The notes: generated by a model not told the origin, from the sequence alone. A stretch of DNA of 64,000 nt from an uncultured Candidatus Rokubacteria bacterium (GCA_963771355.1 CAVYTA010000006.1:2272001-2336000); one strand, 5' to 3'; shown: positions 40,381-56,892, counted from the stretch's first letter. Program-made: numbers and translations.

Positions 40381-40390
40381 CGCATCCGCA

Positions 40391-41695
40391 TCAGCTCTCC
40401 GCTGACCTCCGCCCGTGGAACGCCAGATACACGAGCGGCCCGGTCAGCGCCGCGATCAGGCCGGCCACCGTGTTGGTCCATCCCGCCGTCGCCATCGCGA
40501 GCACGCTCAGGGCCGCCGGCAATCCCGCCACCAGCCACATCCCCACCGCGCCCCCGCCCACGCGCCAGGGCCGCGGCAACGCCGGCTCACGCAGCCGAAG
40601 CGCCACGAAGGCCGCCAGCTCGAGGATGAGGGCGATCGAGTAGAGCCAGATGTTGAGGACGATCAGCTCTTTGAAGGAGAACACCGCGAAGGCGCTGTAG
40701 CAGAGGCTCGAGAGCACCACCGCCACCCACGGCGCCCCGGTCTGTGCGCTCACGCGCGCGAGGATCGAGGGCAATTGCCCCAGGGTCGCCAGCACGAAGG
40801 GCAGCCGCGAGTTGGTGAGGAGCCCCGAGAGGAAGAGCCCCGCGGTGGCGAGCAGCGCGCCCGCGGTCATGAGATGGCCGAGCGCGGGCCCGCCCACCGC
40901 CTCCGCGAGAATGGGCAGATGGCCGGTTTCCCACTCCCCCCAGTCTTCGGAGACGGACAGCCCCGCCGCCACCGGCAGCAGATAGGCCAGCGCGATGATC
41001 GGCAGGGCCACGAACAGCGCGCGGCGATACGCGGTGGCGGGGGCGCGCGTCTCGCCCAGCATGGTGCTGGGATTGTCCCAGCCCGAGTAATTCCACATCA
41101 TCACCGCGAGCCCGAGGCCCAGGCCGGCGACGAGGCTCCCCTCACCCGGCGCGAACGGGATCCACGGCACATGCTCGGCGCGGACACCCGCCACTACGGT
41201 GAAGATGGCCACCGGCGCGAGCGCGCCCACGCCCAGCGCCACCGCGGTCCAGCCCGTCACGCGCACCCCGGCCACGTTGAGGCCGGTGAGCACCCAGATG
41301 AAGGCGAGCGCGAGCGCCCAGCGCGTCGCCGGCGCCATGCCGGGCCACCAGTACATGGCATAGTCCGCGAAGAGCGCCGGATAGATGGCCACGTCCACGA
41401 AGGAGTTGATCCAGCTCCACCAGCCCACCTGGAAACCCCAGAAGGGACCGAAGGCGCGCCGCACCCACGCGACGTAGCCGCCCTCGTCGGGAATCGCCCC
41501 CGCGAGCTCGGACATGGCGAGGGACACCGGCAGGCTCCAGATCAGCGGCGTGACGATCAGGAGGATCAGCGTGAGGCCGGGGCCGAAGGACGCGACGGCG
41601 TCTTCGATGCCATAGGGGCCACCACTGACGTTGAAGAAGACGACGGCGAGCAGAGCGACCCAGCCGAGCTCCCGGCGGAGCCCGGCGCGACTCAC
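40391..41695 (-). CDS. APC family amino acid/polyamine permease
   Basis: FFNVSGGPYGIE, ELAGAIPDEGGY..W, WNYSGWD, RPWRV; about 12 TM. Confidence 0.88.
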   Translation of the reverse strand: MSRAGLRRELGWVALLAVVFFNVSGGPYGIEDAVASFGPGLTLILLIVTPLIWSLPVSLAMSELAGAIPDEGGYVAWVRRAFGPFWGFQVGWWSWINSFVDVAIYPALFADYAMYWWPGMAPATRWALALAFIWVLTGLNVAGVRVTGWTAVALGVGALAPVAIFTVVAGVRAEHVPWIPFAPGEGSLVAGLGLGLAVMMWNYSGWDNPSTMLGETRAPATAYRRALFVALPIIALAYLLPVAAGLSVSEDWGEWETGHLPILAEAVGGPALGHLMTAGALLATAGLFLSGLLTNSRLPFVLATLGQLPSILARVSAQTGAPWVAVVLSSLCYSAFAVFSFKELIVLNIWLYSIALILELAAFVALRLREPALPRPWRVGGGAVGMWLVAGLPAALSVLAMATAGWTNTVAGLIAALTGPLVYLAFHGRRSAES

Positions 41696-41913
41696 GACGC
41701 CTGGGCTTGCTGGATGAGGGCGGGCAACCCCTTGAGCCACTCGTCGATCGGCACCTCCGCGTCGACGATGATCTCGAGCTTGCCCGAGGGCATGCGGCGC
41801 ACACGGCCCTTGCCGGTGCCGAGCGGGATCACCACGTGCTCGCGGTGGACGCCGAGAGCATCGAGCACCGCGAAGATCTTGTTGATCTCGGCCATCCCGA
41901 CCGCGTCGAGCAC
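41692..41913 (-). CDS. Small hypothetical protein
   Basis: Protein-like (EINKIFAVLDALG..REHVVIPL..GKLEII); stop overlaps the permease start. Confidence 0.6.
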   Translation of the reverse strand: MLDAVGMAEINKIFAVLDALGVHREHVVIPLGTGKGRVRRMPSGKLEIIVDAEVPIDEWLKGLPALIQQAQAS

Positions 41914-41923
41914 GGGGGCCGCT

Positions 41924-42295
41924 TCAGGGAGCCTGGCGCAGCTCGGCGGGCGGCCGGGTGCCGCCGGGGATGTGCACGGGCCCACCCGGGCCATAGCCGG
42001 TGAGCGGCGGCACCGTGACCTGGGTGTCGGAGAGCCGCCGCTCCTCGTGGCCAGGAATCACGATTTCCTTCCGCGTGCCCGGATCGATGAGCCGCTGCTC
42101 GGGAACATACCGAGTCTCCGGGGGCGGCGCGGCGGGTAGCCGGGGCAGAGGCCTCTGCGCGCCCCTTGCCGACTGGTCGATGGGATTCTGCTGGTACGGG
42201 TAGCGCGGGCCGCCGCCGGCGCCGATCTGGGCCGCCGCCGGCACGCCCGGGGCGAGCACCGCTGCGATCATCATGACGAAAAGCAGGCGCTTCAT
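41924..42295 (-). CDS. Secreted Pro-rich hypothetical protein
   Basis: MKRLLFVMMIAAVLAPG signal peptide; TACCAT 7 nt before ATG. Confidence 0.6.
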   Translation of the reverse strand: MKRLLFVMMIAAVLAPGVPAAAQIGAGGGPRYPYQQNPIDQSARGAQRPLPRLPAAPPPETRYVPEQRLIDPGTRKEIVIPGHEERRLSDTQVTVPPLTGYGPGGPVHIPGGTRPPAELRQAP

Positions 42296-42367
42296 GCCTC
42301 TAATGGTATGTGACGGATGAGGGCTTCGCAACCAATCGCACCGTGTTAAGGTGACGCCCGAGAACCG

Positions 42368-43207
42368 ATGACGATGCGCGCCCCCGGCCTCCGTCTCTCG
42401 TTCCTGGTCTTTGCGGCCGCATTCCTCGCGCTGAGCGCACCGTCCCGCGCCCAGACGCCCGACCTTCCGATCTTCGACACCCATATCCACTACAGCGCGC
42501 CCGACTGGACGGAATATCCCGAGGAGCGCATCCTGGGCATCCTCCAGCAGGCTGGGGTGAAGCGCGCCCTCGTCTCGAGCACCCCCGACGACGGCACCAT
42601 CAAGCTCTACCAGCGCGATCCCAAGCGCATCGTGCCCATCCTGCGCCCGTATCGCACGCGCGAGGACATCGGCCACTGGTGGCAGGACCCGTCCGTGATT
42701 CCCTACCTCGAGTCGCGCCTCGCGCTCAAGGTGCACAAGGGCATCGGCGAGTTCCACCTCTTCGGCGGTCAGACCGGCACGCCGGTGATCAAGCAGCTGA
42801 TCGAGATCGTCCTCCGCGAGAACATCTTCCTCCACGCCCACTCCGACGAGGTGGCCATCGTGGAGCTCTTCACGATCGAGCCGCGCCTGAAGGTAATCTG
42901 GGCCCATGCCGGGATGTCCTCGGGCCCACAGGCGGTGAGCGCCCTCCTCGACCGCTACCCGAACCTCTCGGTGGACCTCGCCATCCGCAACGGCGATGTG
43001 GCCCCGGGCGGCGTGCTCGACCCGGGCTGGCGCGCGGTGTTCCTGCGCCACCCGGATCGCTTCCTCGCCGGCACCGACACCTGGGTCACCTCGCGGTGGG
43101 AGGCACTGCCGGGCTCGGTGAGCGAGGTGCGGACGTACCTGAATCAGCTGCCGCGCGACGTCGCCGAGAAGATCGCCTACAAGAACGCGGAGCGACTCTT
43201 CCCCTAG
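42368..43207 (+). CDS. Secreted amidohydrolase_2 family protein
   Basis: Signal peptide, DTHIH, GIGEFH, WAHAG, FLAGTD, NAERLF. Confidence 0.85.
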   Translation: MTMRAPGLRLSFLVFAAAFLALSAPSRAQTPDLPIFDTHIHYSAPDWTEYPEERILGILQQAGVKRALVSSTPDDGTIKLYQRDPKRIVPILRPYRTREDIGHWWQDPSVIPYLESRLALKVHKGIGEFHLFGGQTGTPVIKQLIEIVLRENIFLHAHSDEVAIVELFTIEPRLKVIWAHAGMSSGPQAVSALLDRYPNLSVDLAIRNGDVAPGGVLDPGWRAVFLRHPDRFLAGTDTWVTSRWEALPGSVSEVRTYLNQLPRDVAEKIAYKNAERLFP

Positions 43208-43374
43208 TTCGCCTACACGCTAAACGCGAGCAATCAAGTGATACAGACCGATGTGAGCAACCCCTCGGCTCTGCTTCCCGTGCCGGAGGCGGTCGCCCCG
43301 TTCTTGGTCTCCGTCAACCCGACATAGGGTGCCGGTCTCGGACGCCGGCCACCCCAGGAGCCGACGGCACAGCG

Positions 43375-43640
43375 ATCCCACGATGCCGCGGTGGCGCGAA
43401 GCGGACGGGCGCGTCAAGCTCTCGGCGGCGTGGCTCATCGAACACGCGGGACTGCGCCGCGGAGACGGGCCGGGTCCCGTCGCACTGTCCACGCGCCACC
43501 GCCTCGCCATCGTCTGCCGCGAGGGATCGCGTGCGGCCGACGTCACCGCTTTCGCGCGCGAGATCCGCGCGCGGGTTGAGGCTCGCTTCGGTATCCGCCT
43601 CGTCCCCGAGCCCGTCTTCTGGGGCGCGCCGCCGATGTAG
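43375..43640 (+). pseudogene. murB: C-terminal fragment of UDP-N-acetylmuramate dehydrogenase
   Basis: VKLSAAWLIEHAG, STRHRLAI, AREIRARVEARFGIRLVPEP; FAD-binding N-terminal part absent. Confidence 0.75.
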
Positions 43641-43649
43641 AATGCCTGG

Positions 43650-44708
43650 ATGAAGCGTCGGTATCGGGCCGTGCTCGTCGGCTGCGGGGCGCGCGGACAG
43701 AGCCATGCGCTTGGCCTTCTCGCGAATCGGGACCGGTTCGAGCTGGTGGCGCTCTGCGATCGGGACGCCGCGCGCCTCGGCGCGCTCGCGCACACGCTTG
43801 GCATCACGCGCGTCTACTCCGACGCCGAGGCCATGCTCGCCGCCGAGCGCCCCGACCTGCTCTGTTTCGCCACCCCGCCGGCGGTGCGGGTCGAGCTCGT
43901 CGAGCTCGGGGTGCGGCATGGCGTTCGTGCGATCGCGCTCGAGAAGCCGCTCGCGCTCTCGCTGGCCGACGCCCGGCGCATTGTCGCGCTCTGCGCGGGC
44001 GGCATACAGGCCGTCGTCTGCCATCAGCTCAAGCACGCCGGCCATTGGCGGCGGATCAAGCAGATCGTGGAGGAGGGCGGCATCGGGGAGATCCGGTCCT
44101 TCCACGCTACTGCCCGTCCGTCGATGCTGCGGGTGGGCACCCATCTCGTCGATGCCATGCTGTGGCTCGGCGGGGGCATGCAAGCGACGTCGGTCCACGG
44201 CCAGGCTCAGGGGCGCCTAGCTTATCTCGAGGACCATCCTTGTCCTGATCACGCGGCGGGCGTCGTCGAATTCGCGAGCGGGGTCCGCGGTTTCCTCGAG
44301 ATCGGCTCTCTGGCGCCTCGTCACCTCGACGAGGGCGACTTTTGGGGCGATGTGGCTGTCACGGTCCGGGGCGCCCGGGGCCATGCACGCGTGGTGCTGG
44401 GTGGCGGGTGGGAGGCGGTCACGCGGTGGTCCGGAGGCCGGGTTGAAACCGGGCCCGCCGATGTCTCGCCGGGCGAGCCCGAGCATATGCGCCTTCTGGC
44501 CGACTGGCTGGACGATCCCCGGCGGGTGCATCCGTCAAATCTCAAGACGAGCTACCACGGCTTCGAGATCCTGATGGGCCTCGCGCTGTCGAGTCTCGAG
44601 CGCCGCCGCGTCGATCTACCCATCGCCGGGACTCCTGAAGCCATCCTGGAGCGACTCAGGGATGCGCTTCCAGAAGACGAGCGTCCGGCCGCCCGGGCTT
44701 CATCGTGA
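43650..44708 (+). CDS. Gfo/Idh/MocA family oxidoreductase
   Basis: VGCGARG, LCD, ATPP, EKPLA, GTHLVD; TAGAAT 6 nt before ATG. Confidence 0.88.
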   Translation: MKRRYRAVLVGCGARGQSHALGLLANRDRFELVALCDRDAARLGALAHTLGITRVYSDAEAMLAAERPDLLCFATPPAVRVELVELGVRHGVRAIALEKPLALSLADARRIVALCAGGIQAVVCHQLKHAGHWRRIKQIVEEGGIGEIRSFHATARPSMLRVGTHLVDAMLWLGGGMQATSVHGQAQGRLAYLEDHPCPDHAAGVVEFASGVRGFLEIGSLAPRHLDEGDFWGDVAVTVRGARGHARVVLGGGWEAVTRWSGGRVETGPADVSPGEPEHMRLLADWLDDPRRVHPSNLKTSYHGFEILMGLALSSLERRRVDLPIAGTPEAILERLRDALPEDERPAARASS

Positions 44709-45469
44709 TCGCGCTCCGAGCGGTCACCAAGCGCTTTGGTGGTCGCCTCGCGCTCGACGGCGTGTCGATCGAGGTGCGTGCCGGCGCCGTCCATGTGCTG
44801 CTGGGCTCGAGTGGCTCGGGCAAATCGACGGTCCTGCGACTCATCCTCGGTCTCGTGGAGCCGGACGGGGGCGAAGTGCTGGTGGACGGGACGCCCGTGA
44901 CCGAGTCCACGCGGGCCGGGCTGGTGAGACGCATGGGCTACGTGGTGCAAGACGGCGGCCTCTACCCGCATCTGACCGCGTACCAGAACGTGGCGCTTCC
45001 GGCGGAAGCGCACGGCTGGCCGTCGGCGCAGACTCGCGCGCGCGCGGGCGAGCTGGGGGCGATGGTGGGACTCGACGGAGACAGCCTGCGCGCCTACCCC
45101 CGCGAGCTCAGCGGGGGACAGCGCCAGCGTGTCGGACTCATGCGGGCGCTGGTGCTCGACCCGCCCGTGCTTCTCCTCGACGAGCCGCTCGGATCGCTCG
45201 ACCCGATCGTCCGGGCCGAGCTCCAGGGCCAGCTCGGCCGGCTCTTTGCGGCGCTCGGCAAGACCGTCGTGATGGTGACCCACGATATCCGCGAGGCGGC
45301 TCTCCTCGGCAGCACCATCACCCTCATGACCGCCGGCCGCATCGTCCAGCAGGGGGCGTTCGCCGACTTGGTCGAGCGGCCCACCTCGCCGTTCGTGACT
45401 CAGTTCCTGACCGCTCAAACGCTCGCTCCCGGCCAAACACTCGCTCCCGGGGATTCAGGGGCCCGATAA
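44705..45469 (+). CDS. ABC ATPase, osmoprotectant (OpuA/ProV-like) importer
   Basis: GSSGSGKS, GYVVQDGGLYPHLT, LSGGQRQR, LLDEP, VTHD. Confidence 0.92.
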   Translation: MIALRAVTKRFGGRLALDGVSIEVRAGAVHVLLGSSGSGKSTVLRLILGLVEPDGGEVLVDGTPVTESTRAGLVRRMGYVVQDGGLYPHLTAYQNVALPAEAHGWPSAQTRARAGELGAMVGLDGDSLRAYPRELSGGQRQRVGLMRALVLDPPVLLLDEPLGSLDPIVRAELQGQLGRLFAALGKTVVMVTHDIREAALLGSTITLMTAGRIVQQGAFADLVERPTSPFVTQFLTAQTLAPGQTLAPGDSGAR

Positions 45470-45472
45470 CAC

Positions 45473-46966
45473 ATGCGGCCGCTCGTGGCGGGTGCCGCGC
45501 TCGTGGCTCTGCTGCTGCACGGATTCGGCGTCAGCGCCGCGCAGGACGGAGTCATCCGTGTCGGGTCGAAGTCCTTCACGGAAAGCTACCTCCTCGCGGA
45601 AATCGCGGCACAGGTTATCGAGCAGGCTGGAGAGGCCCGCGTCGAACGGCGGCTCGGCCTCGGCGGCACCGGTATCACCTACCGGGCCATCGCCTCGGGC
45701 GCGATCGACCTCTATCCCGAATACACGGGCACGCTCACCCGCGTCATCCTGAAGGACCCGGCGCTTCGCATACCCGAGGCGATCCGCGCGCGCCTCCGGC
45801 CATCGGGGCTGACGATGAGCGAGCCCCTCGGCTTCAACAACACGTATGCGCTCGCGGTCCGCGTCGACACCGCCGAGCGTTTGGACCTAAAGAGCATCGG
45901 TGACCTCGTGCGTCACCAAGAGCTCACCGCGGCGTTCAGCTCAGGTTTTCTGGAGCGCGAGGACGGCTGGCCGGGACTCAGGCGCCACTACGGCCTGTCG
46001 CTGGCTCGCGTACGGGTGATGGAGCACGCCCTGACGTACCGGGCGCTCGCCGGCGGCGAGGTGGATGTCATGGACGTCTTCTCGACGGACGGGCAGCTCG
46101 AGCGCCTGCGACTTCGGATTCTCCGGGACGATCGGGGCTTCTTCCCGGACTACTCGGCGGTGCTCCTGGCCCGCCGGGAAATGGCCGAGCGATTCCCGCG
46201 CACGTGGGCGCGGCTCCGTCAAGCCCTCGAGGGATCACTCGACGACCGGCGCATGGCTGAGCTCAACGCGATGGTGGACCTGGACGGCAAGAGCATCCCC
46301 GAAGTGGCCGCCGCCGTCGCGGGCGCGGCACTGCCGGACGCGCAGGCCAGACCGGGCATCGTGACGGAGATCTACGCCCTCACGCTCGACCACCTGGTCC
46401 TCGTCCTGGTCTCCCTGGCCGCCGCCATCGTCCTGGGCGTGCCGTTGGGCATCGCCGCGGCACGGTTCCGGCGGATCGGTCAGGTCGAGCTCGGCGCCAT
46501 CGGCATGCTGCAGACGGTCCCGGCCCTGGCGCTCCTCGTGTTCATGATCCCGCTCTTCGGGATCGGCAAAGGTCCCGCCCTCGTCGCCCTCTCCCTGTAC
46601 GCGCTCCTCCCCATCGTGCGCAGCACCTACGCCGGGATCATCGGGATCGATCGCCATCTCCTGGAGATCGCCTTTGTGCTCGGGCTCGGCCGCCTCGCGC
46701 GCCTGGTCCGCATCGAGCTCCCGCTCGCCTCCATCAGTGTCATGGCGGGGATCAAGACCTCCGCCGTCATGACGGTGGGTACGGCCACGCTCGCCGCGTT
46801 CATCGGCGGCGGCGGCTATGGAGCGCTGATCGTGCGGGGCTTGGCGCTGGATGACACCGCGACGATCCTGGCCGGGGCCGCGCCCGCCGCGGCGATGGCG
46901 GTGGCGTTTCACGTGGTCTTCGAGTTTCTGGACCGTCTCGCGATCCCGCGCGGCCTCCGCCGCTAA
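45473..46966 (+). CDS. Fused betaine-type substrate-binding protein plus ABC permease
   Basis: VGSKSFTE, IDLYPEYTGT, GFNNTY, REDGW, FFPDY; then QTVPALAL, IELPLA, AFIGGGG. Confidence 0.9.
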   Translation: MRPLVAGAALVALLLHGFGVSAAQDGVIRVGSKSFTESYLLAEIAAQVIEQAGEARVERRLGLGGTGITYRAIASGAIDLYPEYTGTLTRVILKDPALRIPEAIRARLRPSGLTMSEPLGFNNTYALAVRVDTAERLDLKSIGDLVRHQELTAAFSSGFLEREDGWPGLRRHYGLSLARVRVMEHALTYRALAGGEVDVMDVFSTDGQLERLRLRILRDDRGFFPDYSAVLLARREMAERFPRTWARLRQALEGSLDDRRMAELNAMVDLDGKSIPEVAAAVAGAALPDAQARPGIVTEIYALTLDHLVLVLVSLAAAIVLGVPLGIAAARFRRIGQVELGAIGMLQTVPALALLVFMIPLFGIGKGPALVALSLYALLPIVRSTYAGIIGIDRHLLEIAFVLGLGRLARLVRIELPLASISVMAGIKTSAVMTVGTATLAAFIGGGGYGALIVRGLALDDTATILAGAAPAAAMAVAFHVVFEFLDRLAIPRGLRR

Positions 46967-47787
46967 CCTCCGGAGTCGAGGAGGGCGTTGAGGCGGCTGC
47001 ACGCCGCGATGACTTCGCGGTCCCTGCCCGGGAACCACGCCCGGATCCATTGCGGGCGCTCAAAGAAGGCCAGCGGAGGCCGTGCGCGGCGCCTGATACC
47101 CACCCGGAGCACGAGGCCGCTGGCATTGATGAAGCTCACGTCCTCCAGCATGCGTCCCACCCCGGCCACGCCGACGGTGACCGGGCAGAGCTTCGCGACG
47201 GCAGCGATCGAATCCGAGACGCCGCGAAGGCAGAAACCGTGGGTCCGGGGCAGGACCACGGGCGGCAGGGCCTCGAGGACGCTTCGCAGGGTGAGACCCG
47301 AGAATACGGTGTCGTCCACCACGGCGAGCGACTCGGAGGCAGGGAAGCCTTTGAGCCCGCCGGCAAGCTGGGCGGCGAGTGTGGCCGGCACGGTACTGAC
47401 GAGATGATAGTCTCCACGCCCGTCCTCCTCTCGAGTAAGCCCGAGGCGGTGAACGCGCGGGAACCAGCCGGTCTTCGCGTGGAGCGCCTGGGCCGCGCGC
47501 TCGCCGGCTCGGCCGATGCCGAGGGCAAGATCGAATGGGGCATGCCGACCCTGGGCGATGACACGCTCGACCTGCTCGGCCAGCGTGAGGACCACGACCC
47601 TCTCGGGGTCTCTTTTCAGGAGGGCGAAGAGGGAGCGGGTGAGGGCGGCGGCGGGGGAGGCGGGACCGAGACGCTCCGCCACTTCGTCGCTCAGATCGTC
47701 GTGGACGTACAGCAGTCGGGGCGTGGGCTGCGCGTAGGCCCCGCGGTCCGGCTCGTCCACGCCGCGGGACGTGTCAGCCGGCGGCAT
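46963..47787 (-). CDS. Hypothetical protein with phosphoribosyltransferase-like PRPP loop
   Basis: LAVVDDTVFSGLTL and LGIGRAG; start overlaps the Sec-redoxin 3' end. Confidence 0.65.
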   Translation of the reverse strand: MPPADTSRGVDEPDRGAYAQPTPRLLYVHDDLSDEVAERLGPASPAAALTRSLFALLKRDPERVVVLTLAEQVERVIAQGRHAPFDLALGIGRAGERAAQALHAKTGWFPRVHRLGLTREEDGRGDYHLVSTVPATLAAQLAGGLKGFPASESLAVVDDTVFSGLTLRSVLEALPPVVLPRTHGFCLRGVSDSIAAVAKLCPVTVGVAGVGRMLEDVSFINASGLVLRVGIRRRARPPLAFFERPQWIRAWFPGRDREVIAACSRLNALLDSGG

Positions 47788-48310
47788 CCGGCTGGGGCCC
47801 ACGATAGACGTAGTCGCCTCGACAGCGCTCCATCATCGCGCGCATGTCCTGGCGCAGCTCCTCGAGCGTCGGCCGTCCGACATACCACCAGCCGTTGTAG
47901 ATCCGATGAATCGTGAGATCAGGCAGGAGCGAGAAGGTGAACGGCAGGGCGAGGAGACCGTGCCGGAATGCCGGCGGCGTCGCCTCGACGATGTCGAGGC
48001 GTGAGATGACGCGCCGCTCGTGATCGCTCAGGAACGTAAAGGTGGCGCCGAGTCCTGCGCGGAACGCCGCCGAGACCTCGGGCGGGTCCGTCGAGACCAC
48101 CGCGAGCTTGCAGTAGTTGACGGCGAGTTCGTCCTGGAGCTCGGTCAGGTGCCGCAACTGGCACCCGCACTTCGGTCACCAGTACCCGCGGTAGAAGCTC
48201 ACGATGAGCGGGAACTCGCCCGCGAGCGCGGAGAGGCGGACCGGCTCGGCTCGATGATCGGGCAGCTCGAGATCCGGGAACTGCTTGCCGACGGCCAGAT
48301 GTGGGTGCAC
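47774..48310 (-). CDS. AhpC/TSA (peroxiredoxin-like) selenoprotein, UxxC (Sec at codon 45, TGA 48176-48178), 178 aa
   Basis: AGGAGG RBS, GTG start; VGKQFPDLELPDH..VRLS..FYRGYW-U-PKC..AVVSTD..FTFLSD in a single frame. Confidence 0.85.
48146..48167 (-). promoter_or_regulatory. Putative bacterial SECIS hairpin
   Basis: CGGGUGCC-AGUUGC-GGCACCUG starting 8 nt after the UGA; G is the second loop base. Confidence 0.65.
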
Positions 48311-48321
48311 GAAATATCCTC

Positions 48322-49296
48322 CTAGCCCGAAGCGGCAACCGCGAGGGCGAAGTAGCTCTCCGAGTCGGTGTGCCAGGTCTCGAGGCGAAGCCCGGCCTCT
48401 TCGAGCATGGCCTGGGCCCCGGCGCGGCTGAACTTGTAGGAACTCTCCGTCCAGATGTTTTCGTCCGGCGAGATTCGAATGGTCAGCTCCAGGCGGCGAA
48501 GATGCACCACCTGCGTCGAGTCGGGGACGAGGTGCATCTCGATGCGGGCCGCAGGCTCGTTGTAGAAGGCGACGTGCCGGAAGGCCGTGGGGCGGAAGTC
48601 GGCGTCCGCGCCGTGGTTGACGACGTTGAGGATGTTCCGGTTGAACTCCCGGGTGACGCCGCTCGCGTCGTTGTATGCGGCTTCGAGCACCGTGACGTCC
48701 TTGACGAGGTCGAGGCCGAGGAGAAAGCGATCCTCCCGGCTACGGAGGAGCGCGCGCACCTGGGAGAGCAGCCGCAGCCTGGCCGGAGGGTCGAGGTTGC
48801 CGATCGTGCTCCCGAGGAAGAGCACGAGGCGGCGGCCGACCGGGGAGGGCACGTGCTCCAGGTGCCGCTCGAAGTCACCCACGAGGGCGCGCACGTCGAG
48901 GAACGGGTAGTCGGAAATGAGGCGGGCCGCGCTGGCTTGCACGGTCAGCTCGTCGACGTCGATCGGAACGTAGCGCAGGCGATCCGGCAGGCCATTCCGG
49001 CCATCGAGGAGCCGGCGGGTCTTCGACGCCGATCCCGGACCGAGCTCTACGATGTCCTGGGGCTGCAGCTCGCGCATGAGCCGTGGCGCGAGCGTGTCGA
49101 GGAGCGCCGCTTCCGTCCGCGTCAGGTAGTACTCGGGAAGCTTGGTGATGTCTTCGAACAGATTGGATCCGATGACATCGTAGAAGTACTTCGAAGGCAG
49201 GGTCTTGGGGCTTGCCGTGAGCCCGCGGCGCACGTCTTCCTCGATCCTTGTGCGCCTGTCGGTTTCGTTCGTATACGCGTACGCGCGATAGCGCAT
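48322..49296 (-). CDS. egtD: L-histidine N-alpha-methyltransferase
   Basis: LPSKYFYD..GS.LFE.IT.LPEYYLTRTE, VELGPG, FLGSTIGN, DLVKD...AYND, RIEMHL, TESSYKF. Confidence 0.92.
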   Translation of the reverse strand: MRYRAYAYTNETDRRTRIEEDVRRGLTASPKTLPSKYFYDVIGSNLFEDITKLPEYYLTRTEAALLDTLAPRLMRELQPQDIVELGPGSASKTRRLLDGRNGLPDRLRYVPIDVDELTVQASAARLISDYPFLDVRALVGDFERHLEHVPSPVGRRLVLFLGSTIGNLDPPARLRLLSQVRALLRSREDRFLLGLDLVKDVTVLEAAYNDASGVTREFNRNILNVVNHGADADFRPTAFRHVAFYNEPAARIEMHLVPDSTQVVHLRRLELTIRISPDENIWTESSYKFSRAGAQAMLEEAGLRLETWHTDSESYFALAVAASG

Positions 49297-49488
49297 TATG
49301 GTCGTCGGCCCGAGGCGGGGGGCATGTGGCGACCCCCGCCGCGGACCTTCGAGGGTAGACTGCCTCGGGTCAACTCGCAAGCGTTGCTTGAGATGCGCGA
49401 CTGGGGTCCGGCGCTTTCGGTCGCCGTGGGGCCCATCCCGACGTACACTTCCTGGCAGTGCTCGCTAGGACCATAGGGAGGGTTCTCC

Positions 49489-50820
49489 ATGGCTGAGACG
49501 GTTGGTGAGCGGCTCGCTGGCGTATGGGCGCGCACGGACCGGATCTTCGAGATCCTCGCGCCCGGGGCCTTCCTCGCCCAGCCGATCGCGCTGCGCCACC
49601 CGTTCATCTTCTATGTCGGGCACCTCCCCGCCTTCGCCTGGAACCACGTGTGCGTGGGTGTCCTCGCACGGCCCTCCTTCAACGCCGCGTTCGATGAGCT
49701 CTTCTCCCGCGGCATCGATCCCGATGTGGACGACCCCAGCCACTGCCACGCTCACCCGGAGATCCCGGATCGCTGGCCGACCGTGGCCGAGGTGCTCGCC
49801 TATCGTGATCGCGTCCGGGCCTCGGTGCTCGAATCCGTGGACGCGGTGACGGAGCGGGCCGGGTCGCATCTCATGGCCCGGGATGGGCGCGTCTTCTCGA
49901 TGGTGATCGAGCACGAGCTCATGCACCAGGAGACGCTCCTCTATATGCTCCAGGAGCTCGCTCTCGACCGGAAGGTCCGTCCCGCCTGGCTCCCGCGCGA
50001 TGTGACCGGCCGCGGCCGACCCCCGGCCACGGTGCAGGTGCCCGCGGGGACGGCGACGCTCGGCGCGGCGTTCACCGACCTGGCATTCGGCTGGGACAAT
50101 GAATTCCCCCCGGCTCAGGTCTTCGTGCCGGGTTTCCGCATCGACGAGACGCCGGTGACGAACGGCCAGTTTCTCGCCTTCGTGGACGACGGAGGATACC
50201 GGCGCCGCGAGCTCTGGGCTGCCGATGACTGGGGATGGAACCGTGAGGAGACCCTCGCTCATCCGCGGGTGTGGACGAACCAGGACGGGCGGTGGCTCTA
50301 CCGCGGCCTCTTCGATCTCCTCCCGCTCGAGCGCGTGATGGATTGGCCCGTGTACGTCAGCCTGGCCGAGGCGCGGGCGTATGCGCGCTGGCGTGGTCTG
50401 CGCCTGCCCACGGAGGCGGAGTTCCACCGGGCGGCTTTCGGCGATCCACGGGGACCCGAGCGTGCCTTCCCCTGGGGGGCAGGCGCTCCCGGGGAGCGAC
50501 ACGGCAACTTCGACTTTCGCCACTGGGCGCCGACGCCCGTGGGCACGTACCCCGAGGGCGCGAGCGCGTGGGGTGTCTACGACCTCGTCGGCAATGGGTG
50601 GGAATGGACCGAGACGCCGTTCGCGGGTTTTGCGGGTTTCGAGGCGTGGATCCCCGGATATTCCGGCTACTCAGCCGATTTCTTCGACGGCAAGCACTTT
50701 GTCCTCAAGGGCGGTTCGTGGGCGACCGCCGCGGAGCTTGTACGGCGGAGCTTCCGCAACTGGTTCCAGGCGCACTATTCGTACGTGTTCGCCACGTTTC
50801 GCTGTGTCGAGAGCCCCTGA
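49489..50820 (+). CDS. egtB: Non-heme iron sulfoxide synthase (DinB + FGE-sulfatase), fungal-Egt1-like motif set
   Basis: LRHPFIFYVGH, RGIDPDVDD, EHELMHQE (H-x3-H-x-E), FGWDNE, RLPTEAE, GNGWEW, GYSADFFDG, RNWFQ. Confidence 0.85.
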   Translation: MAETVGERLAGVWARTDRIFEILAPGAFLAQPIALRHPFIFYVGHLPAFAWNHVCVGVLARPSFNAAFDELFSRGIDPDVDDPSHCHAHPEIPDRWPTVAEVLAYRDRVRASVLESVDAVTERAGSHLMARDGRVFSMVIEHELMHQETLLYMLQELALDRKVRPAWLPRDVTGRGRPPATVQVPAGTATLGAAFTDLAFGWDNEFPPAQVFVPGFRIDETPVTNGQFLAFVDDGGYRRRELWAADDWGWNREETLAHPRVWTNQDGRWLYRGLFDLLPLERVMDWPVYVSLAEARAYARWRGLRLPTEAEFHRAAFGDPRGPERAFPWGAGAPGERHGNFDFRHWAPTPVGTYPEGASAWGVYDLVGNGWEWTETPFAGFAGFEAWIPGYSGYSADFFDGKHFVLKGGSWATAAELVRRSFRNWFQAHYSYVFATFRCVESP

Positions 50821-50991
50821 CGCCGATCGCGCGCGCGAGATCCTGCGTTTCTCTGCGCCCCGGTTCGCTTGGGCTATGACCCCGCAAGGTTGTGCCGGAG
50901 TCCGGGCCCGAATGCAATCGGGCTCGCGCACCTCGGGTGTATCGTGACCGAGGAGGCCGCCGCCGGGGAGCCCGGCACGGCCGGCCACATC

Positions 50992-52653
50992 ATGGCAGAC
51001 CCGTACCTGGGCCGTCGCGACCAGATGTTCCCCCGGCTGACCCCGGCTCAGATCGAACGGATCTCCGCGGTCGGCGAGCGTCGCAGCGTCCGCTCGGGCG
51101 AGGTGCTGTTCGAGCTCGGGGAGCAAAACACCCGCTTCTTCGTGGTCATCGAGGGCGCCGTCGAGATCGTGCGCCCGGTCGACGGTCGTGAACAGCCGAT
51201 CGTGGTGCACGGCCCCGGCGAATTCACGGGCGAGATCAACATGCTATCCGCGCGCCGCGCCATCGTCCTCGGGCGGGCTCTCGGCGACGGGTCGATCGTC
51301 GTCGTCGATCGTGAGCATCTGCGCGCGCTCGTGCAGCGAGACTTCGAGCTCAGCGAGATCCTCATGCGTTCCTTCATTCTGCGGAGGGTGGCGCTCATCG
51401 CCCACGGCGACAGCGGCCTGGTCCTCATCGGCTCTCGGCATTCGGCAAACACGCTACAGATCAGAGAGTTCCTGACTCGAAACGCGCAGCCGTTCACATA
51501 CCAGGACGTGGAGAGCGACCCGGACGTGCAGGCGCTCCTGGATCGGTTCCAGGTCGGGGTCGACGACGTGCCCGTGGTCGTGTGCGAGGGGGGCCAGGTG
51601 CTGAGGAACCCCTCGATCGAGGCACTGGCCTCGGGGCTCGGCCTGAGCCCCGAGTTCGACGCCGGGGTGACGAGGGACGTGGTCATCGTTGGCGCGGGAC
51701 CGGCGGGTCTCGCGGCCGCGGTCTACGCCGCATCGGAGGGGCTCGACGTGCTGGTGCTCGAGACCACCGCGCCCGGCGGCCAGGCCGGCTCGAGCTCACG
51801 CATCGAGAACTATCTCGGATTCCCCACCGGCATCTCCGGCCAGGACCTGGCTGGGCGTGCGCTCATGCAGACCGAGAAGTTCGGCGCGGAGGTGGCCATC
51901 GCCCGGGGGGCCGTCGGTCTCGACTGCACGTCGAAGCCCTACGCGGTCCGCCTGGCGACCGGCGAAGTCGTGCGTACGAGGACCGTCGTCATCGCCAGCG
52001 GCGCCAGGTACCGGAAGCCCGCCCTCTCGGAGCTCTCGCGTTTCGAGGGAGCGGGCATCATGTACAGCGCCACCCACGTCGAAGCGCAGCTCTGCAAGGA
52101 GGAGGAGATCGCCATCGTGGGGGGCGGCAATTCCGCCGGACAGGCGGCCGTCTTTCTCTCGCAGAGCTCGGCCCAGGTGAACGTGCTCGTGCGAGGCCCG
52201 GGGCTCGCGGCGAGCATGTCGCGCTACCTCATCCAGCGAATCGAAGACAGCTCGAACGTGGTGCTGCGTGCGCGCACGCAGATCGACGCGCTCGAGGGAA
52301 CCGACCGCCTCGAGGGGATCCGCTGGCGCCATCTCGACACCGGACAATCGCAGACGCGCCCGATCCGTCACCTGTTCCTGATGACCGGCGCCGACCCGAA
52401 CACCGCCTGGCTCGGCGGATGCGTGGTGCTTGACGACAAGAACTTCGTCAAGACCGGCGCCGAGCTCCACCCCGATGAGCTCGAAGAGGCGGGATGGCCT
52501 CTCGCCCGCCGGCCCGATCTGCTGGAGACGAGCATGCCGGGTGTCTTCGCGGTCGGCGATGCACGGTCGGGCAGCGTCAAGCGTGTGGCGTCGGCGGTGG
52601 GCGAGGGCTCGGTGTGCGTCCAGCTCATCCACCGGGCGCTCCGTGAGCTGTAG
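50992..52653 (+). CDS. Cyclic-nucleotide-binding domain fused to thioredoxin reductase-like FAD domain
   Basis: cNMP domain (GPGEFTGE), GAGPAG, SSRIENYLGFPTG, GGGNSAGQ, FAVGD..SVKRVASAVGEG; YSAT in place of CxxC. Confidence 0.88.
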   Translation: MADPYLGRRDQMFPRLTPAQIERISAVGERRSVRSGEVLFELGEQNTRFFVVIEGAVEIVRPVDGREQPIVVHGPGEFTGEINMLSARRAIVLGRALGDGSIVVVDREHLRALVQRDFELSEILMRSFILRRVALIAHGDSGLVLIGSRHSANTLQIREFLTRNAQPFTYQDVESDPDVQALLDRFQVGVDDVPVVVCEGGQVLRNPSIEALASGLGLSPEFDAGVTRDVVIVGAGPAGLAAAVYAASEGLDVLVLETTAPGGQAGSSSRIENYLGFPTGISGQDLAGRALMQTEKFGAEVAIARGAVGLDCTSKPYAVRLATGEVVRTRTVVIASGARYRKPALSELSRFEGAGIMYSATHVEAQLCKEEEIAIVGGGNSAGQAAVFLSQSSAQVNVLVRGPGLAASMSRYLIQRIEDSSNVVLRARTQIDALEGTDRLEGIRWRHLDTGQSQTRPIRHLFLMTGADPNTAWLGGCVVLDDKNFVKTGAELHPDELEEAGWPLARRPDLLETSMPGVFAVGDARSGSVKRVASAVGEGSVCVQLIHRALREL

Positions 52654-52683
52654 CGCGCGCCATTCTCGTTCCGCGCCCCTTCG

Positions 52684-52806
52684 CTAATCACTCATAAGCG
52701 ATGCTGCCGCCACGCGCATGAAGGCCTCCAGGTGCTCGGCGACGACCTGATGGAGCACGGTGTGCTCGGCGTCGCGGGGCCGGTAGACCGCTCGCTGGAG
52801 GGCCAT
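52684..52806 (-). mobile_element. Truncated IS91-family transposase N-terminus
   Basis: MALQRAVYRPRDAEHTVLHQVVAEHLEAF resembles the segment preceding the IS91 Zn-binding domain; ends after about 40 aa. Confidence 0.6.
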
Positions 52807-53013
52807 GGCTCCCAAGCACGCGGCCCGACTCCTTCTTGAACGCGCCGTGACTGAAGAAGGCGTACTCACCGGGCTGGAGCGACGCGCGAGGAGTGAGCGG
52901 TGGAATCGAACATGTTTGCGATGATTCGCTGGGGTCTCCGCGTCCCTGAGGGGGTCCGCGAATTGTGGCTCTACCCATCGCGCGCCGTCAAGTCCAAGGT
53001 GTAGAATCCCGCC

Positions 53014-54414
53014 ATGCCTCGACCGATGAGCGACGATGGCGCGCGTCAGAGCCTCCGCGGCTTCGTATCGGCGCTGGAGCAGGCCCACCCGGGCGAGGTG
53101 GTGCGCATCACGGAGCCCGTGGACCTCGCCTACCAGACGCAAGCGCTAGCACTGGAGCTCGAGCGGCGGCGGCGGTTTCCCTTGCTGATCTTCGAGCAGG
53201 TCCGCGGCCACTCGATCCCCATCGTGTCGAATGTCACGGCGAGCCGGCGAGGGCTCGCGACGGCTCTCGGGGTCGACGAGGCGCAGCTCCCGGAGGAGTA
53301 CGCCAAGCGGCTGAAGGAGCCGATCAAGCCCGTCGTCCTCGACCGCCCGCCCTTCGCGCTCGAGGTCAGGAGTGGTGATGCGGTAGACCTTGGCGCCCTG
53401 CCCATCCCGACGTATTTTCCTGGCGACGGCGGCCCCTACCTGACGGCGGGGCTTCTCACCGCGCGGGACCCTGCCACGGGAGTCTCCACCGCGGGCTTCC
53501 ACCGGTTTCAGGTCAAGGGGCCGGACCGGCTCGGCGTGAGCCTCCACTCGCGCCGGCGCATGTACGAATTCCAGCAGCGGGCGGAGAAGGCCGGACGGAG
53601 CCTCGACTGCGCCATCGTCATCGGGCTCCATCCTGCCGTCGGGATGGGGTCGCTCTCTTATCCAGCGCCGGAGATCTCGAAGTTCGAGGTGGTCGGCGGG
53701 CTGTTCGGAGAGTCCATGCAGCTTCGGCGGGCGGAGACGGTCGACCTCGACGTCCCGGCCTGGGCCGAAATCGTGATTGAAGGCGAGATCCTGCCGGCCG
53801 CGCGCGAGCCCGAGGGCCCCTTCGGGGAGTTCACCGGCTACTTCTCGCGCCGGAGCACCGACAACATCTTCGTGGCGCGCGCCATCGTGCTGCGACAAGG
53901 CGCGTGGTTCCACTCGATCGCTTCCGGCCGGGCGCCCGACCACATCTTGCCGCTGGGTGTCCTGCGGGAGGCCGAGATCCGCAACTCGCTCCGCCGCGTG
54001 ATCCCGGGAGTGCGCGCGGTACACGTGCCGGTGTCGGGCGGCGCGTCGTTCACCGCGTACGTATCGATCAAGCAGACGCGGCCCGGGGAGGCCAAGCACG
54101 CCATCTCCGTCGTCCTCGGGGTGGATCACTACCTCAAGCTCGTAGTCATCGTGGACGACGACATCGACGTGTTCGATGAATCCGACGTCCTGTGGGCGAT
54201 GGCGACCCGGGTGCAGCCCGACCGTGACCTCGTCATCATCAGCGGCAGCCTCGGCGCGATCCTCGATCCTTCGGCGAGCCCCGAGGGGCTGACCGCAAAG
54301 CTCGGCATCGACGCCACGAGGGCCTTCGGCGAGGCCGGAGCGGAGAAGCTCGTCATGTCCGCCGAGGCGATGGCCTGGGCGCGCGCCCTGGTCGACCGGC
54401 TCTCGCGCGGCTAG
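53014..54414 (+). CDS. UbiD family (de)carboxylase
   Basis: DGGPYLTAG, AEIVIEG, EGPFGEFTGY, VDDDIDV, WAMATR, KLGIDAT. Confidence 0.92.
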   Translation: MPRPMSDDGARQSLRGFVSALEQAHPGEVVRITEPVDLAYQTQALALELERRRRFPLLIFEQVRGHSIPIVSNVTASRRGLATALGVDEAQLPEEYAKRLKEPIKPVVLDRPPFALEVRSGDAVDLGALPIPTYFPGDGGPYLTAGLLTARDPATGVSTAGFHRFQVKGPDRLGVSLHSRRRMYEFQQRAEKAGRSLDCAIVIGLHPAVGMGSLSYPAPEISKFEVVGGLFGESMQLRRAETVDLDVPAWAEIVIEGEILPAAREPEGPFGEFTGYFSRRSTDNIFVARAIVLRQGAWFHSIASGRAPDHILPLGVLREAEIRNSLRRVIPGVRAVHVPVSGGASFTAYVSIKQTRPGEAKHAISVVLGVDHYLKLVVIVDDDIDVFDESDVLWAMATRVQPDRDLVIISGSLGAILDPSASPEGLTAKLGIDATRAFGEAGAEKLVMSAEAMAWARALVDRLSRG

Positions 54415-54419
54415 CGCGC

Positions 54420-55538
54420 CTACGGCTTCAGGATCACGCGGGTGGCCGCCGTGCCCGTGCTCTTTCCCTGCCACTCGGCCATCTCGAAGGCCTTGTTGAT
54501 GTCCTTGAGCGGGAAGCTGTGGGACACCAGCGACGTGAGCAGGTACTTCGCGTTCGTGCGCACCAGGAACTCCAGCGCGGCGGGGATGATCCAGGGATCG
54601 TAGTGGGTGACGCCCAGCCACTTGATCTGGTTGGTGATGACGAGCGTGGCGGGCAGCGTCACCGTCTGCGGCACGATGTTGCCGATGTCCACGTATTTGC
54701 CGTTGATCCTAACCATGTTGAGGCCTTCCAACGTGGCCGCGGCGATCCCGACCACTTCCACCACGATGTCGGCGCCGCGCCCGTCGGTGAGCTCCTTCAC
54801 CCGCGCGATGCGCTTCTCCGGCGTCGGGTACTCGTTCATGTCGATGACATCGGTGGCGCCGCACTTCGTCGCCAGCGCCAGCCGCGGAGCCTGGCCGTCC
54901 ACCGAGATCACGCGCGCGGCGCCTTTCTCGGCCGCCACCGCCGCCGCGTAGATCCCGAGCCCGCCCGCGCCCTGGATGACCACCACGTCGCCGAACTTCA
55001 TCTCCGCCGACTCGAGCCCGTAGAGCACCTGGCAAAGCGCGCAGTTCACGGGCGGAATGGCGTCGTCGGGCAGCTCGTCCGGCACCTTGAACGCGTAATG
55101 ACCGGGCGGGAGGTAGTAGTACTCCGCATAGCCGCCGTCACAGTAGGGGTACTCGTTCAGCGTGAACTGATTGCTCTTCCGCTGGCGATGCGGGCAGGCG
55201 TGGTGCTCGCCGCGCACGCACCAGTAGCAGCGGTTGCACGGATTGAAGAAGGGGAACGCGATGCGGTCGCCCTCCTTCAGCGGGCGGCGGAGGGAGTCGA
55301 ACTGCACGCCCTTGCCCAGCGCCGCCACCACGCCGGTGAACTCGTGCCCGGGCACGCGGCGGATATCGGGGCCGGAATAATTCCCGTCATTCCGCCAGTA
55401 GTGCAAATCCGAGCCACAGATGGCGGCGGCGGTGTTCTTGACGAGGAGCCCGCCGGGCTCGACCTCGGGCGTGGGCAGGGTTTCCAGGGCGAGCGGCTTG
55501 CCCGGCTGGAGCAGAACGGCGGTGAGTCCCTTGGGCAC
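54420..55538 (-). CDS. Zinc-binding alcohol dehydrogenase (MDR)
   Basis: ICGSDLH, GHEFTG, CNRCYWC..C, QGAGGLG; AAGGAG RBS before GTG. Confidence 0.92.
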   Translation of the reverse strand: MPKGLTAVLLQPGKPLALETLPTPEVEPGGLLVKNTAAAICGSDLHYWRNDGNYSGPDIRRVPGHEFTGVVAALGKGVQFDSLRRPLKEGDRIAFPFFNPCNRCYWCVRGEHHACPHRQRKSNQFTLNEYPYCDGGYAEYYYLPPGHYAFKVPDELPDDAIPPVNCALCQVLYGLESAEMKFGDVVVIQGAGGLGIYAAAVAAEKGAARVISVDGQAPRLALATKCGATDVIDMNEYPTPEKRIARVKELTDGRGADIVVEVVGIAAATLEGLNMVRINGKYVDIGNIVPQTVTLPATLVITNQIKWLGVTHYDPWIIPAALEFLVRTNAKYLLTSLVSHSFPLKDINKAFEMAEWQGKSTGTAATRVILKP

Positions 55539-55660
55539 GGTGATCTCCTTGTCGAGTGCAGACTCGCGGCTGGTCCGCGGCGGGCCCCACGGTAGCATCG
55601 GACGCGCCCGGCTCGCCAGCCTTCGGCGCGAGTGGAGGCTCCGGCTCCCCCGCCCGCGCC

Positions 55661-55690
55661 TTGACAGGGCGCGCCGGAAACACGTAGCGT
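55661..55690 (+). promoter_or_regulatory. Sigma70-like leaderless promoter of the CoA-transferase gene
   Basis: TTGACA-N18-TAGCGT, 7 nt before ATG 55698. Confidence 0.5.
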
Positions 55691-55697
55691 CGGGCCC

Positions 55698-56892
55698 ATG
55701 CCCGGGCCTCTGCAGGGCGTCCGTATCGTCGACGCCACCACCGTCGTGCTGGGTCCCCTCGCCACGCAGATGCTGGGCGACCTAGGCGCCGACATCGTCA
55801 AGGTCGAGCCGCCCGAGGGCGACACCACACGCAAGCTCGGCCCCACGCGCAACCCCGACATGGCCGCGTTCTACCTCGCATGCAACCGGAACAAGCGAAG
55901 CATCGTGCTGGACCTCAAGCAGCGCGGCCGGCCACGCGGCGCTGATCCGCCTGATCACGGGCGCGGACGTCTTCGTCCACAACTTCCGGCCCCAGGCGGC
56001 GGCGCGGCTCAAGGTCGAGTACGAGCGGGTGCGCGCGGTCAATCCCGGCATCGTCTACTGCGCGACGTACGGCTTCCGCGCCGCCGGCCCCTACGGCAAC
56101 AAGCCCGTCTACGACGACATCATCCAGGCGGCGTCCGGCCTCGCGTCCCTCCAGGCCCCGCTGGTCGGCGATCCGCGCTACCTCCCTACCATCGTGGCCG
56201 ACAAGACCAGCTCGATGGCGGTGGCCCATGCCCTCCTCGCCGCGCTCTACCACAAGGCGCGCACCGGCGAGGGCCAGGCCATCGAGGTGCCGATGTTCGA
56301 GACGGTGGTCGCGTGGATGATGGTCGAGCATCTCTACGGCGAGACGTTCCGGCCCGCCCTCGACACGCCCGGCTACAAACGCGTGCTCAACCGCTGGCGT
56401 CGCCCCTTCCCCACCAAGGATGGTTACCTCGCCATCATTCCCTACACCGACACGCACTGGCAGGCATTCTTCCGCGGCGCGGGCCGCGAGGACCTCCTCG
56501 CCGACCCGCGTTTCCAAACCCTGGCCTCGCGGCTCACCCACATCGAGCTCCTCTACGAGGAGCTGGGAAAGATCGCCGCCACCCGCACCAACGCGGAGTG
56601 GCTGACGCTGCTCGACGCCGCCAACGTGCCCGCCACCGTCGTCAACACGCTGGACTCGATCCTCACCGATCCGCAGCTCGAGGCCACCGGGTTCTGGAAG
56701 ACCATCGAGCACCCTAGCGAGGGCCTGCTCCGCACCCCGGACATCCCTGCGACGTACAGCCGGACGCCCGGCGAGATCCGCCGCCATCAGCCGCGGCTCG
56801 GCGAGCACAGCGTGGAGATCCTGAAGGAAGCCGGGATGTCCGACGAGGAGATCCGCGCGATGCTCGCCGCCGGGGCGACCGCCCAGCCCTAG
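55698..56892 (+). CDS. CaiB/BaiF class III CoA-transferase; indel near 55928
   Basis: LGADIVKVEPPEGD, NRNKRSIVLDLK; then ADVFVHNFRP, YDDIIQAASG, PRLGEH in the next frame. Confidence 0.85.

Follow-up and report, generated by a model that had tools for sequence, protein, structure and literature searches.

The 64,000-nt stretch of DNA analysed here (the window) comes from an uncultured Candidatus Rokubacteria bacterium (GCA_963771355.1 CAVYTA010000006.1:2272001-2336000; genome size 5.5 Mb, completeness 99.8%) and carries, between positions 43,650 and 52,653, a locus of ergothioneine (egt) type. The lead of this locus is neither the selenoprotein nor the missing lyase to which the original prediction had drawn attention, but an orphan protein with the predicted fold of a type I phosphoribosyltransferase (PRTase), encoded on the minus strand at 46963..47802 with a start at GTG 47802 or, more likely, at ATG 47787. 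Our preferred reading, tentative as a whole, is that the orphan would phosphoribosylate ergothioneine or hercynine in a reaction dependent on phosphoribosyl pyrophosphate (PRPP), atop ergothioneine synthesis. The synthesis itself, by EgtD, a non-heme iron sulfoxide synthase (NHISS) and a lyase encoded elsewhere, is likely to operate. A conserved, non-textbook egt locus had been proposed and is indeed real.

Neither Pfam nor NCBIfam returned a hit for the orphan, Atlas gave only 'hypothetical' clusters with PRTase leads at 0.90 or lower, and a cluster look-up of its homologues yielded no names; 149 representatives at 50% clustering match it. Its sequence displays a PRPP loop (VDDTVFSGLT), an arginine in the flexible loop (R124) and a C-terminal RxxWxxxWF motif, and D163, D164, T165, S168, G169, T171 and R124 are kept together with RxxWxxxWF in at least 95% of 63 rows. 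A profile of 40 orphan rows matches HGPRT and PyrR via the same VDDTVFSGLT segment. Furthermore, the AlphaFold2 model (pLDDT 93.3) matches a purine PRTase with a Foldseek E of 2.4e-6, and comparison with type I PRTase structures gave a VIA Z of 13.7 and a root-mean-square deviation of 3.7 with 156 aligned residues. From sequence and model together, the orphan is predicted to be a type I PRTase-fold protein with an intact PRPP loop. It resembles HGXPRT/XGPRT as well as PyrR and PurR in fold and in the 13-residue PRPP-binding loop, but it is 9-18% identical to them, carries additional helices at its N-terminus and a C-terminal hood of its own, bears no family name and is tied to egt genes. Purine PRTases, which perform N-linked transfer on an imidazole ring, are among the closest folds of the orphan, and this likeness was counted in favour of the phosphoribosylation reading. 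When longer proteins were searched for orphan fusions, one TPR/AAA chain only was found and it looks chimeric, while three shorter chains joining EgtD to an orphan fragment look like frameshift artefacts and were set aside. Among distant homologues there is one weak viral match and no plasmid match, and two others (L089 and L090, 31-36%) lie directly upstream of GT4 glycosyltransferase genes on short metagenome contigs.

The idea that the orphan is a true partner of egt genes was borne out by both a genome profile and a survey of 57 GTDB loci. Among 61 related genomes, 15 have the orphan and egtD, 4 have egtD only, none has the orphan only and 42 have neither; hence the orphan is accompanied by egtD in 15/15 cases and is carried by 0/42 egtD-less relatives. 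For 13 of the 14 other carriers among these relatives, egtD is on the same stretch as the orphan. These counts are among kin and not independent, so no P value is attached to them. In the phylum of G063 (Tectomicrobia by record title, 17 genomes), 7 genomes have both genes, one has the orphan only, with senA and senB, and 9 have neither. Within 8 kb of the orphan, egtD is found in 47 of the 57 loci, an NHISS gene in 47 (48 by script minus the FGE-only L058) and either of them in 49; of the genomes behind the 8 loci without egtD or NHISS, 5 carry egtD at another place and 3 gave no egtD. The link spans four bacterial groups and several gene orders, the orphan being usually next after egtD in Rokubacteria, and in G627 and G628 it is physically unlinked from the egt genes yet co-occurring. 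It is very improbable that the orphan is a hitchhiker of an island assembled once, with no role in thiohistidine metabolism: its patchy distribution and the presence of distant homologues in other contexts would fit such a history, but the link survives changes of gene order, at least three NHISS replacements and the unlinking in G627 and G628. This gene-neighbourhood survey, of the kind that the original prediction had called for, upholds the link between orphan and egt genes, whereas the redoxin (20 of 57 loci) turns out to be optional and the TrxB-like flavoprotein (4 of 57) rarely linked.

The identity of the NHISS next to the orphan differs between loci, being Egt1-like in 25, of EgtB-II type in 18 and SenA-like in 4. 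On a tree of the orphan (64 rows, five duplicate loci dropped), SenA-like partners arise twice and Egt1-like ones once from an EgtB-II background. Several rows whose record titles name other phyla nest among Rokubacteria in the trees, so that such titles are unreliable. Given that the orphan outlasts these swaps of NHISS donor type, it most simply acts on the shared hercynine or on the finished thione or selone.

In the window, EgtD, the histidine N-alpha-trimethyltransferase, is encoded on the minus strand at 48322..49296; it scores 339.6 bits against TIGR03438 (cut-off 290.9) and matches solved mycobacterial EgtD structures over its full length (E 1e-76). The NHISS gene (49489..50820, plus strand) encodes DinB and FGE domains with a three-His iron triad and a catalytic Tyr, and its product stays under the cut-offs of the family hidden Markov models for EgtB (TIGR03440, 262.6/360), OvoA (TIGR04344, 281.5/400) and SenA (NF041186, 241.9/420). 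Its best match in the PDB is EgtB-IV (E 2e-63). Residues R36, Y42, H45, D77, H142, H146 and Y391 are invariant in 120/120 NHISS rows, while F426 is replaced by Y in 37 of 120. With positions mapped by us from HMMER alignments, the window NHISS agrees with the composite motif RxYH--DxHxHYxNWFx, NWF424-426 included, which is the motif of the cysteine- and hercynine-using EgtB-IV (PMC11030361). Among longer proteins, its top matches are EgtD-NHISS fusions at 46-50% identity, some of which are additionally fused to a PF00155 pyridoxal phosphate (PLP) domain, and it has motifs in common with fungal Egt1 proteins at 33-36% identity. On a quick tree of 53 rows, which holds no EgtB-IV row, it groups within the OvoA/Egt1 branch with a support of 100, clear of the EgtB-II-type enzymes and far from SenA, the fork order within that branch being unsettled. 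Motifs, identity to the fusion proteins and the phylogeny that had been asked for all agree with the earlier label 'Egt1-like'. The enzyme is predicted to couple hercynine and cysteine to hercynylcysteine sulfoxide, and EgtD together with this NHISS to support ordinary cysteine-based ergothioneine synthesis.

The nearest known systems compare as follows. The segments LRHPFIFYxGH, GIDPDVD-CHxH, EHExMHxETxLY, YPGYxADFFDGKH and NW[FY]Q of fungal Egt1, as represented by the EgtD-NHISS fusion of A. fumigatus and the Exophiala 'Ergothioneine biosynthesis protein 1', are present in the window NHISS too, and as in the fungal Egt1/Egt2 pathway (type III EgtB) there is an EgtD partner with no EgtA or EgtC. 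However, the window has two separate divergent genes instead of one EgtD-NHISS chain, its NHISS is bacterial and 33% identical to the two compared fungal proteins, and the locus adds a PRTase-fold partner, a selenocysteine (Sec) redoxin and an importer while it holds no lyase. Judged by its sequence, the NHISS would act as Egt1 does, yet we do not class it as Egt1, the genes being unfused. Compared with EgtB-IV (cyanobacterial OvoA-like; PDB 8VIG, 8VIH), which is its best PDB match and whose composite motif it fits, it scores about twice as high against EgtD-NHISS fusions (at most 492 vs 218 bits, from different databases) and carries an Egt1-type CHxH insert. The selenoneine pathway (SenA/SenB/SenC) shares the logic of an NHISS with EgtD, and the orphan is also found in true senA-senB clusters of Entotheonella, but the window NHISS is far from SenA and the genome is without canonical senB.

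These features bear on another role for the orphan, close to the variant pathway first suggested, namely the synthesis of 1-thio- or 1-seleno-ribose-5-phosphate with PRPP and either sulfide or selenide as substrates; the NHISS would use this sugar in a SenA-like manner so that no lyase is needed. The presence of selD in the genome, and of SenA-like enzymes with altered motif residues beside the orphan, five such genomes being without canonical senB, would be in line with it. We nevertheless consider it quite improbable, as the window NHISS displays the Cys-type OvoA/EgtB-IV motif with R36, Y42, H45 and D77 in 120/120 rows, 18/57 loci pair the orphan with an EgtB-II-type enzyme, 4 loci have both orphan and SenB, and the SenA-like clade also occurs in G026 and G060, where there is no orphan.

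Several further NHISS observations were made. Four three-domain PF00155 PLP-NHISS-EgtD fusions (P0280, P0283, P0286, P0289), one of them named from Plasmodiophora, have an NHISS part 43-46% identical to the window enzyme and by their domains could possibly be one-chain ergothioneine synthases. Cultured Caballeronia strains (L113:6965-8284; hits H2 and H3) carry an NHISS 44-46% identical to it, and neither egtD nor the orphan was seen among open reading frames (ORFs) of at least 200 aa in L113:3000-12500. In many Rokubacterial loci, the window not among them, a DmsA-like gene is located past the Egt1-like NHISS; the molybdoenzyme encoded at L045:3060-5267 (598 bits, under cut-off) is an example, which may be a sulfoxide reductase or just a bystander kept by synteny. 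Finally, a divergent SenA-like clade exists in Rokubacterial relatives (L026, L028, L029, L099, L102, L108), where E and Y replace the N and H of SenA; two tested members are above the NF041186 cut-off, five tested genomes showed no canonical senB (best 106.5 vs 300 bits), and by sequence the clade is a candidate for an uncharacterised NHISS subfamily.

As had been noted earlier, profile searches gave no hit to egtA, egtC, egtE, senB or selD inside the window. Elsewhere in the genome there is a C-S lyase of the PatB family (G000:C5:384858-385991, 440.8 bits, cut-off 340), an EgtE-like protein (G000:C4:231857-232975, 158.6 bits, under the cut-off of 400) and 21 class V aminotransferase matches in total. 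Neither egtA nor egtC was found genome-wide, which is consistent with free cysteine as the sulfur donor. According to an all-NCBI survey, egtE occurs in 6.2% and ovoB in 4.4% of NHISS neighbourhoods, and a pathway could be completed in E. coli with a borrowed lyase (PMC13674229). The missing lyase is thus ordinary, because egtE neighbours so few NHISS genes and a PatB lyase above cut-off is encoded elsewhere; we rejected it as a novelty, and with it the suggestion that its absence denotes a variant pathway. A selenium product, also suggested, was rejected for this genome on the Cys-type motif of the NHISS and the lack of canonical senB, for which the best genome-wide match (105.5 vs 300 bits) is about 1 Mb from the locus. 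The latter is a full-length SenB-related GT4 (G000:C6:1264736-1265725) not near egt genes, and similar scores are seen for SenB-related GT4 proteins in five relatives. The selD gene (G000:C4:225335-226252) belongs to an open frame of 817 codons that may be a fusion; the EgtE-like PLP enzyme is encoded about 6 kb away.

The pathway that we propose would run as follows. By its family assignment EgtD would trimethylate histidine, by its motif the Egt1-like NHISS would form hercynylcysteine sulfoxide, and a PLP lyase encoded elsewhere, either PatB or the EgtE-like protein, may be drawn in to cleave the sulfoxide. The orphan would then move ribose-5-phosphate from PRPP onto ergothioneine or hercynine and give an N- or S-ribotide, the linkage possibly being N-linked as purine PRTases make it on the imidazole ring. 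At loci with an adjacent HAD gene, the HAD protein would trim the ribotide to a riboside. The converging ATP-binding cassette (ABC) importer would recapture the conjugate or hercynine, a step suggested by the Gly that replaces an imidazole-NH-binding Glu in its binding protein, and the Sec-redoxin would be an optional helper that may reduce a sulfenic acid or a disulfide.

The importer consists of a ProV/OpuBA-like ATPase (44705..45469, plus strand) and a betaine-binding protein of the AfProX/EgtU family with an altered pocket, fused to its permease (45473..46966, plus strand). An orthologue of the binding protein is present in 13/15 orphan-bearing genomes and in 0/46 orphan-less ones; it tracks the orphan rather than egtD, because the latter group includes the egtD-only genomes (0/4). 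The binding protein is equally close to AfProX and EgtU (E ~2e-40 to both) and keeps the carboxylate clamp and the aromatic cage, with K33, R162 and D164. In contrast to SpEgtUC, however, F35, Y84 and G158 occupy the positions of G244, F293 and E375, so that the pneumococcal EgtU signature (G244, F293, E375; PMC9732360) is absent. E375 of SpEgtU binds the imidazole NH (PMC9732360), and Gly stands at its position in 37/37 binding-protein rows. This altered pocket fits a ring-substituted or sulfur-free ligand, as predicted from the sequence.

The reactions of PRTases are reversible. The orphan could hence be imagined in the salvage direction, or acting on some other imported betaine or ribotide, where it would free hercynine or ergothioneine from an imported conjugate. 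The importer that tracks the orphan, with its AfProX-like F35 and Y84, no E375 and no pneumococcal signature, is as expected from this, but the orphan was never seen in a gene set devoted to scavenging only (0/42 egtD-less relatives) and loci with an LmbT-like GT4 are without the importer. Taken together, we regard salvage as unlikely.

The GT4 in question is near the orphan in 15/57 loci, and its best PDB match is 8IXP/8IL0/8ILA (E 2.7e-11). LmbT (8ILA) and CcbT are ergothioneine S-glycosyltransferases of lincosamide biosynthesis, and W101 and R260 of LmbT contact ergothioneine (PMC12945683); R252 of the GT4 aligns to R260, and its W94 is one column off W101. LmbT/CcbT thus provide a known attachment of a sugar to ergothioneine with a distant relative near the orphan, but they have a GT-B fold unrelated to that of the orphan, use a GDP-sugar donor and were not found in this genome. 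A HAD gene is found in 13/57 orphan loci and a GT2 in 8/57. Clusters such as L046:7009-14053 and L042:2627-10321 contain a GT2, the orphan, an LmbT-like GT4, a HAD, EgtB or SenA/SenB, EgtD and a Sec-redoxin, with a DinB mycothiol-transferase-like gene next in L042; by gene content this suggests ergothioneine or selenoneine glycoconjugate chemistry.

Several observations weigh against the phosphoribosylation reading. Of 151 genomes in the class of G062, 112 have egtD and 2 the orphan, and in the phylum of G061 the orphan is found in 1/401; most egtD genomes being without it, the orphan is accessory. No egtD was found in the orphan genomes L075, L087 and L088, nor in G063. The loops are also retained in distant homologues of 30-40% identity, and both of those with context, on 1.5-kb contigs, adjoin plain GT4 genes; since the loops are shared outside the egt context, binding of a betaine is not a necessary role of the conserved aromatics. 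The pocket of H. pylori EgtU differs from the pneumococcal one and still binds ergothioneine (10.1101/2025.07.28.667264), which makes the Glu-to-Gly argument soft. Moreover, neither an LmbT-like GT4 nor a partner HAD turned up in this genome at E<1e-8, and PyrR and PurR also came up in the fold and profile searches with the orphan.

PyrR and PurR are regulators that share the PRTase fold and loop, and histidine synthesis consumes PRPP. The orphan may accordingly be thought of as a non-catalytic PRPP or nucleotide sensor of this kind, tuning egt expression or EgtD activity to the supply of PRPP and histidine, for which its usual place directly after egtD in Rokubacteria also speaks. This appears rather unlikely to us, given that the orphan is often last in its unit or apart from egtD, that no Rfam element was found in 40000-56000, and that the altered-pocket importer, the HAD and the LmbT-like GT travel with it, suggesting a metabolite. 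Regulatory RNA, promoter and terminator searches showed nothing exceeding chance. We retain phosphoribosylation as the preferred, if tentative, reading.

The gene between egtD and the orphan (47774..48310, minus strand) encodes a redoxin of the AhpC/TSA family, 178 aa by read-through, with a UxxC motif. An in-frame TGA (48176..48178, minus strand), within YRGYW*PKC, is located at the first Cys position of the CxxC motif, with homology on both sides. The TGA is kept at this codon in 20/20 linked GTDB loci, redoxin homologues occur in 24/61 relatives and each full-length match has an internal TGA, and selA, selB, selD and tRNA-Sec are all present in the genome. From these features the redoxin is a probable selenoprotein with Sec45, as had been supposed. 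In bacteria, the selenocysteine insertion sequence (SECIS) follows a spacing rule after the UGA; a candidate hairpin, GGUGCC-AGUUGC-GGCACC (48148..48165, minus strand), begins 10 nt after it. Its minimum-free-energy fold has a z of -0.31, which is weak support, and across 18 homologues 73% of cells are paired, with one pair showing a two-sided change that also alters amino acids. Two further AhpC-like genes with W*PFC (UxxC) are encoded at G000:C6:327815 and G000:C7:781465.

The locus had been described as built around this selenoprotein, which is not what the survey shows. Of the 20 loci with the redoxin, which span three groups, 19 have it immediately downstream of egtD, but it is missing from 37/57 orphan loci. 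In a sister family, 16/21 genomes have redoxin orthologues, with the orphan in none and egtD in one, while in the window's family the redoxin occurs in 7/36 genomes, all 7 with egtD; four of them carry it elsewhere, and three of these four unlinked copies nest among egt-linked ones on the redoxin tree. Hence the redoxin, found in 20/57 loci only, is optional, and the orphan is the constant partner.

Divergent from egtD, about 170 nt past the NHISS gene, a cNMP-binding and TrxB-like flavoprotein is encoded (50992..52653, plus strand; longest ORF from 50869). Of the divergent pair proposed at the outset, the arrangement and the Egt1-like label stand but the TrxB identity does not, as the protein reads YSATH where TrxB has CxxC and scores 196.1 against TIGR01292 (cut-off 343.45), hence is not a canonical TrxB. 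Four linked homologues are likewise without CxxC at that site. The gene is near the orphan in 4/57 loci, with one partial copy at a contig edge, and in 2/14 other orphan-bearing relatives, one about 12 kb from egtD; it is probably a passenger and not core.

A dedicated circuit from NADPH via this flavoprotein to the Sec-redoxin, recycling ergothioneine or its sulfenic acid, had also been put forward. Such a circuit would be favoured by three observations: the sulfenic acid set free by EgtE has to be reduced (PMC4493562), mammalian TrxR depends on selenium for reducing ergothioneine disulfide (PMC8868364), and the redoxin follows egtD in nearly all of its linked loci. The circuit is not supported, however, since the redoxin is optional, with close orthologues in the orphan-less sister family, and the flavoprotein is without CxxC and rarely linked; we hold the complete circuit to be most improbable. 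The redoxin half alone is compatible with the phosphoribosylation model and is a possibility that we keep with reserve; by analogy, a role in reducing a lyase-made sulfenic acid or ergothioneine disulfide is plausible.

All eight ORFs of the locus were confirmed as real, at the positions and in the arrangement earlier described. The tight operon of egtD, redoxin and orphan is confirmed by a gap of 11 nt between egtD and the redoxin gene and by the overlap of the latter with the orphan start, all on the minus strand. Coordinates and strands likewise agree with a Gfo gene and betaine-type ABC importer converging on it: the stop of the orphan overlaps that of the fused binding protein-permease gene, the last of the unit, which begins with a Gfo/Idh/MocA oxidoreductase (43650..44708, plus strand; PF01408 and PF22725) whose stop overlaps the ATPase start. 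As a core part, the Gfo gene is a weak candidate, with orthologues near the orphan in 2/57 loci and also in G008. An isolated C-terminal MurB fragment (43329-43640, plus strand), probably a remnant, is found just upstream of it.

By titles and abstract beginnings, nothing relevant was found in the literature on a link between ergothioneine and a phosphoribosyltransferase, or on Rokubacteria and ergothioneine; the NHISS clade or the locus may already be included in the supplements of PMC11030361, on uncharacterised NHISS subfamilies, or of PMC13674229, on rare neighbours. The latter survey, of 2026, states that, besides one acetylase, no scaffold-modifying enzyme is known outside the canonical pathways, and its table, which counts annotated domains, lists no PRTase (PMC13674229). 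Surveys of annotated domains would miss the orphan, as it has no Pfam or NCBIfam hit.

With its NHISS the locus provides a bacterial counterpart of the fungal Egt1 sulfoxide synthase that stands alone, and its redoxin is a candidate bacterial selenoprotein that may recycle oxidised ergothioneine. In a wider and still more tentative form, an unnamed PRTase family may use ergothioneine, selenoneine or hercynine to form a nucleotide-like ribotide or riboside, with a re-tuned importer and sometimes an LmbT-like GT and a selenoprotein reductant. The orphan is one small soluble protein, so the predicted activity is readily testable. If true, phosphoribosylation of ergothioneine would be a new reaction and its product a new metabolite of an intensively studied antioxidant; the ribotide or riboside would be an undescribed thiohistidine metabolite of uncultured soil and sponge-associated bacteria.

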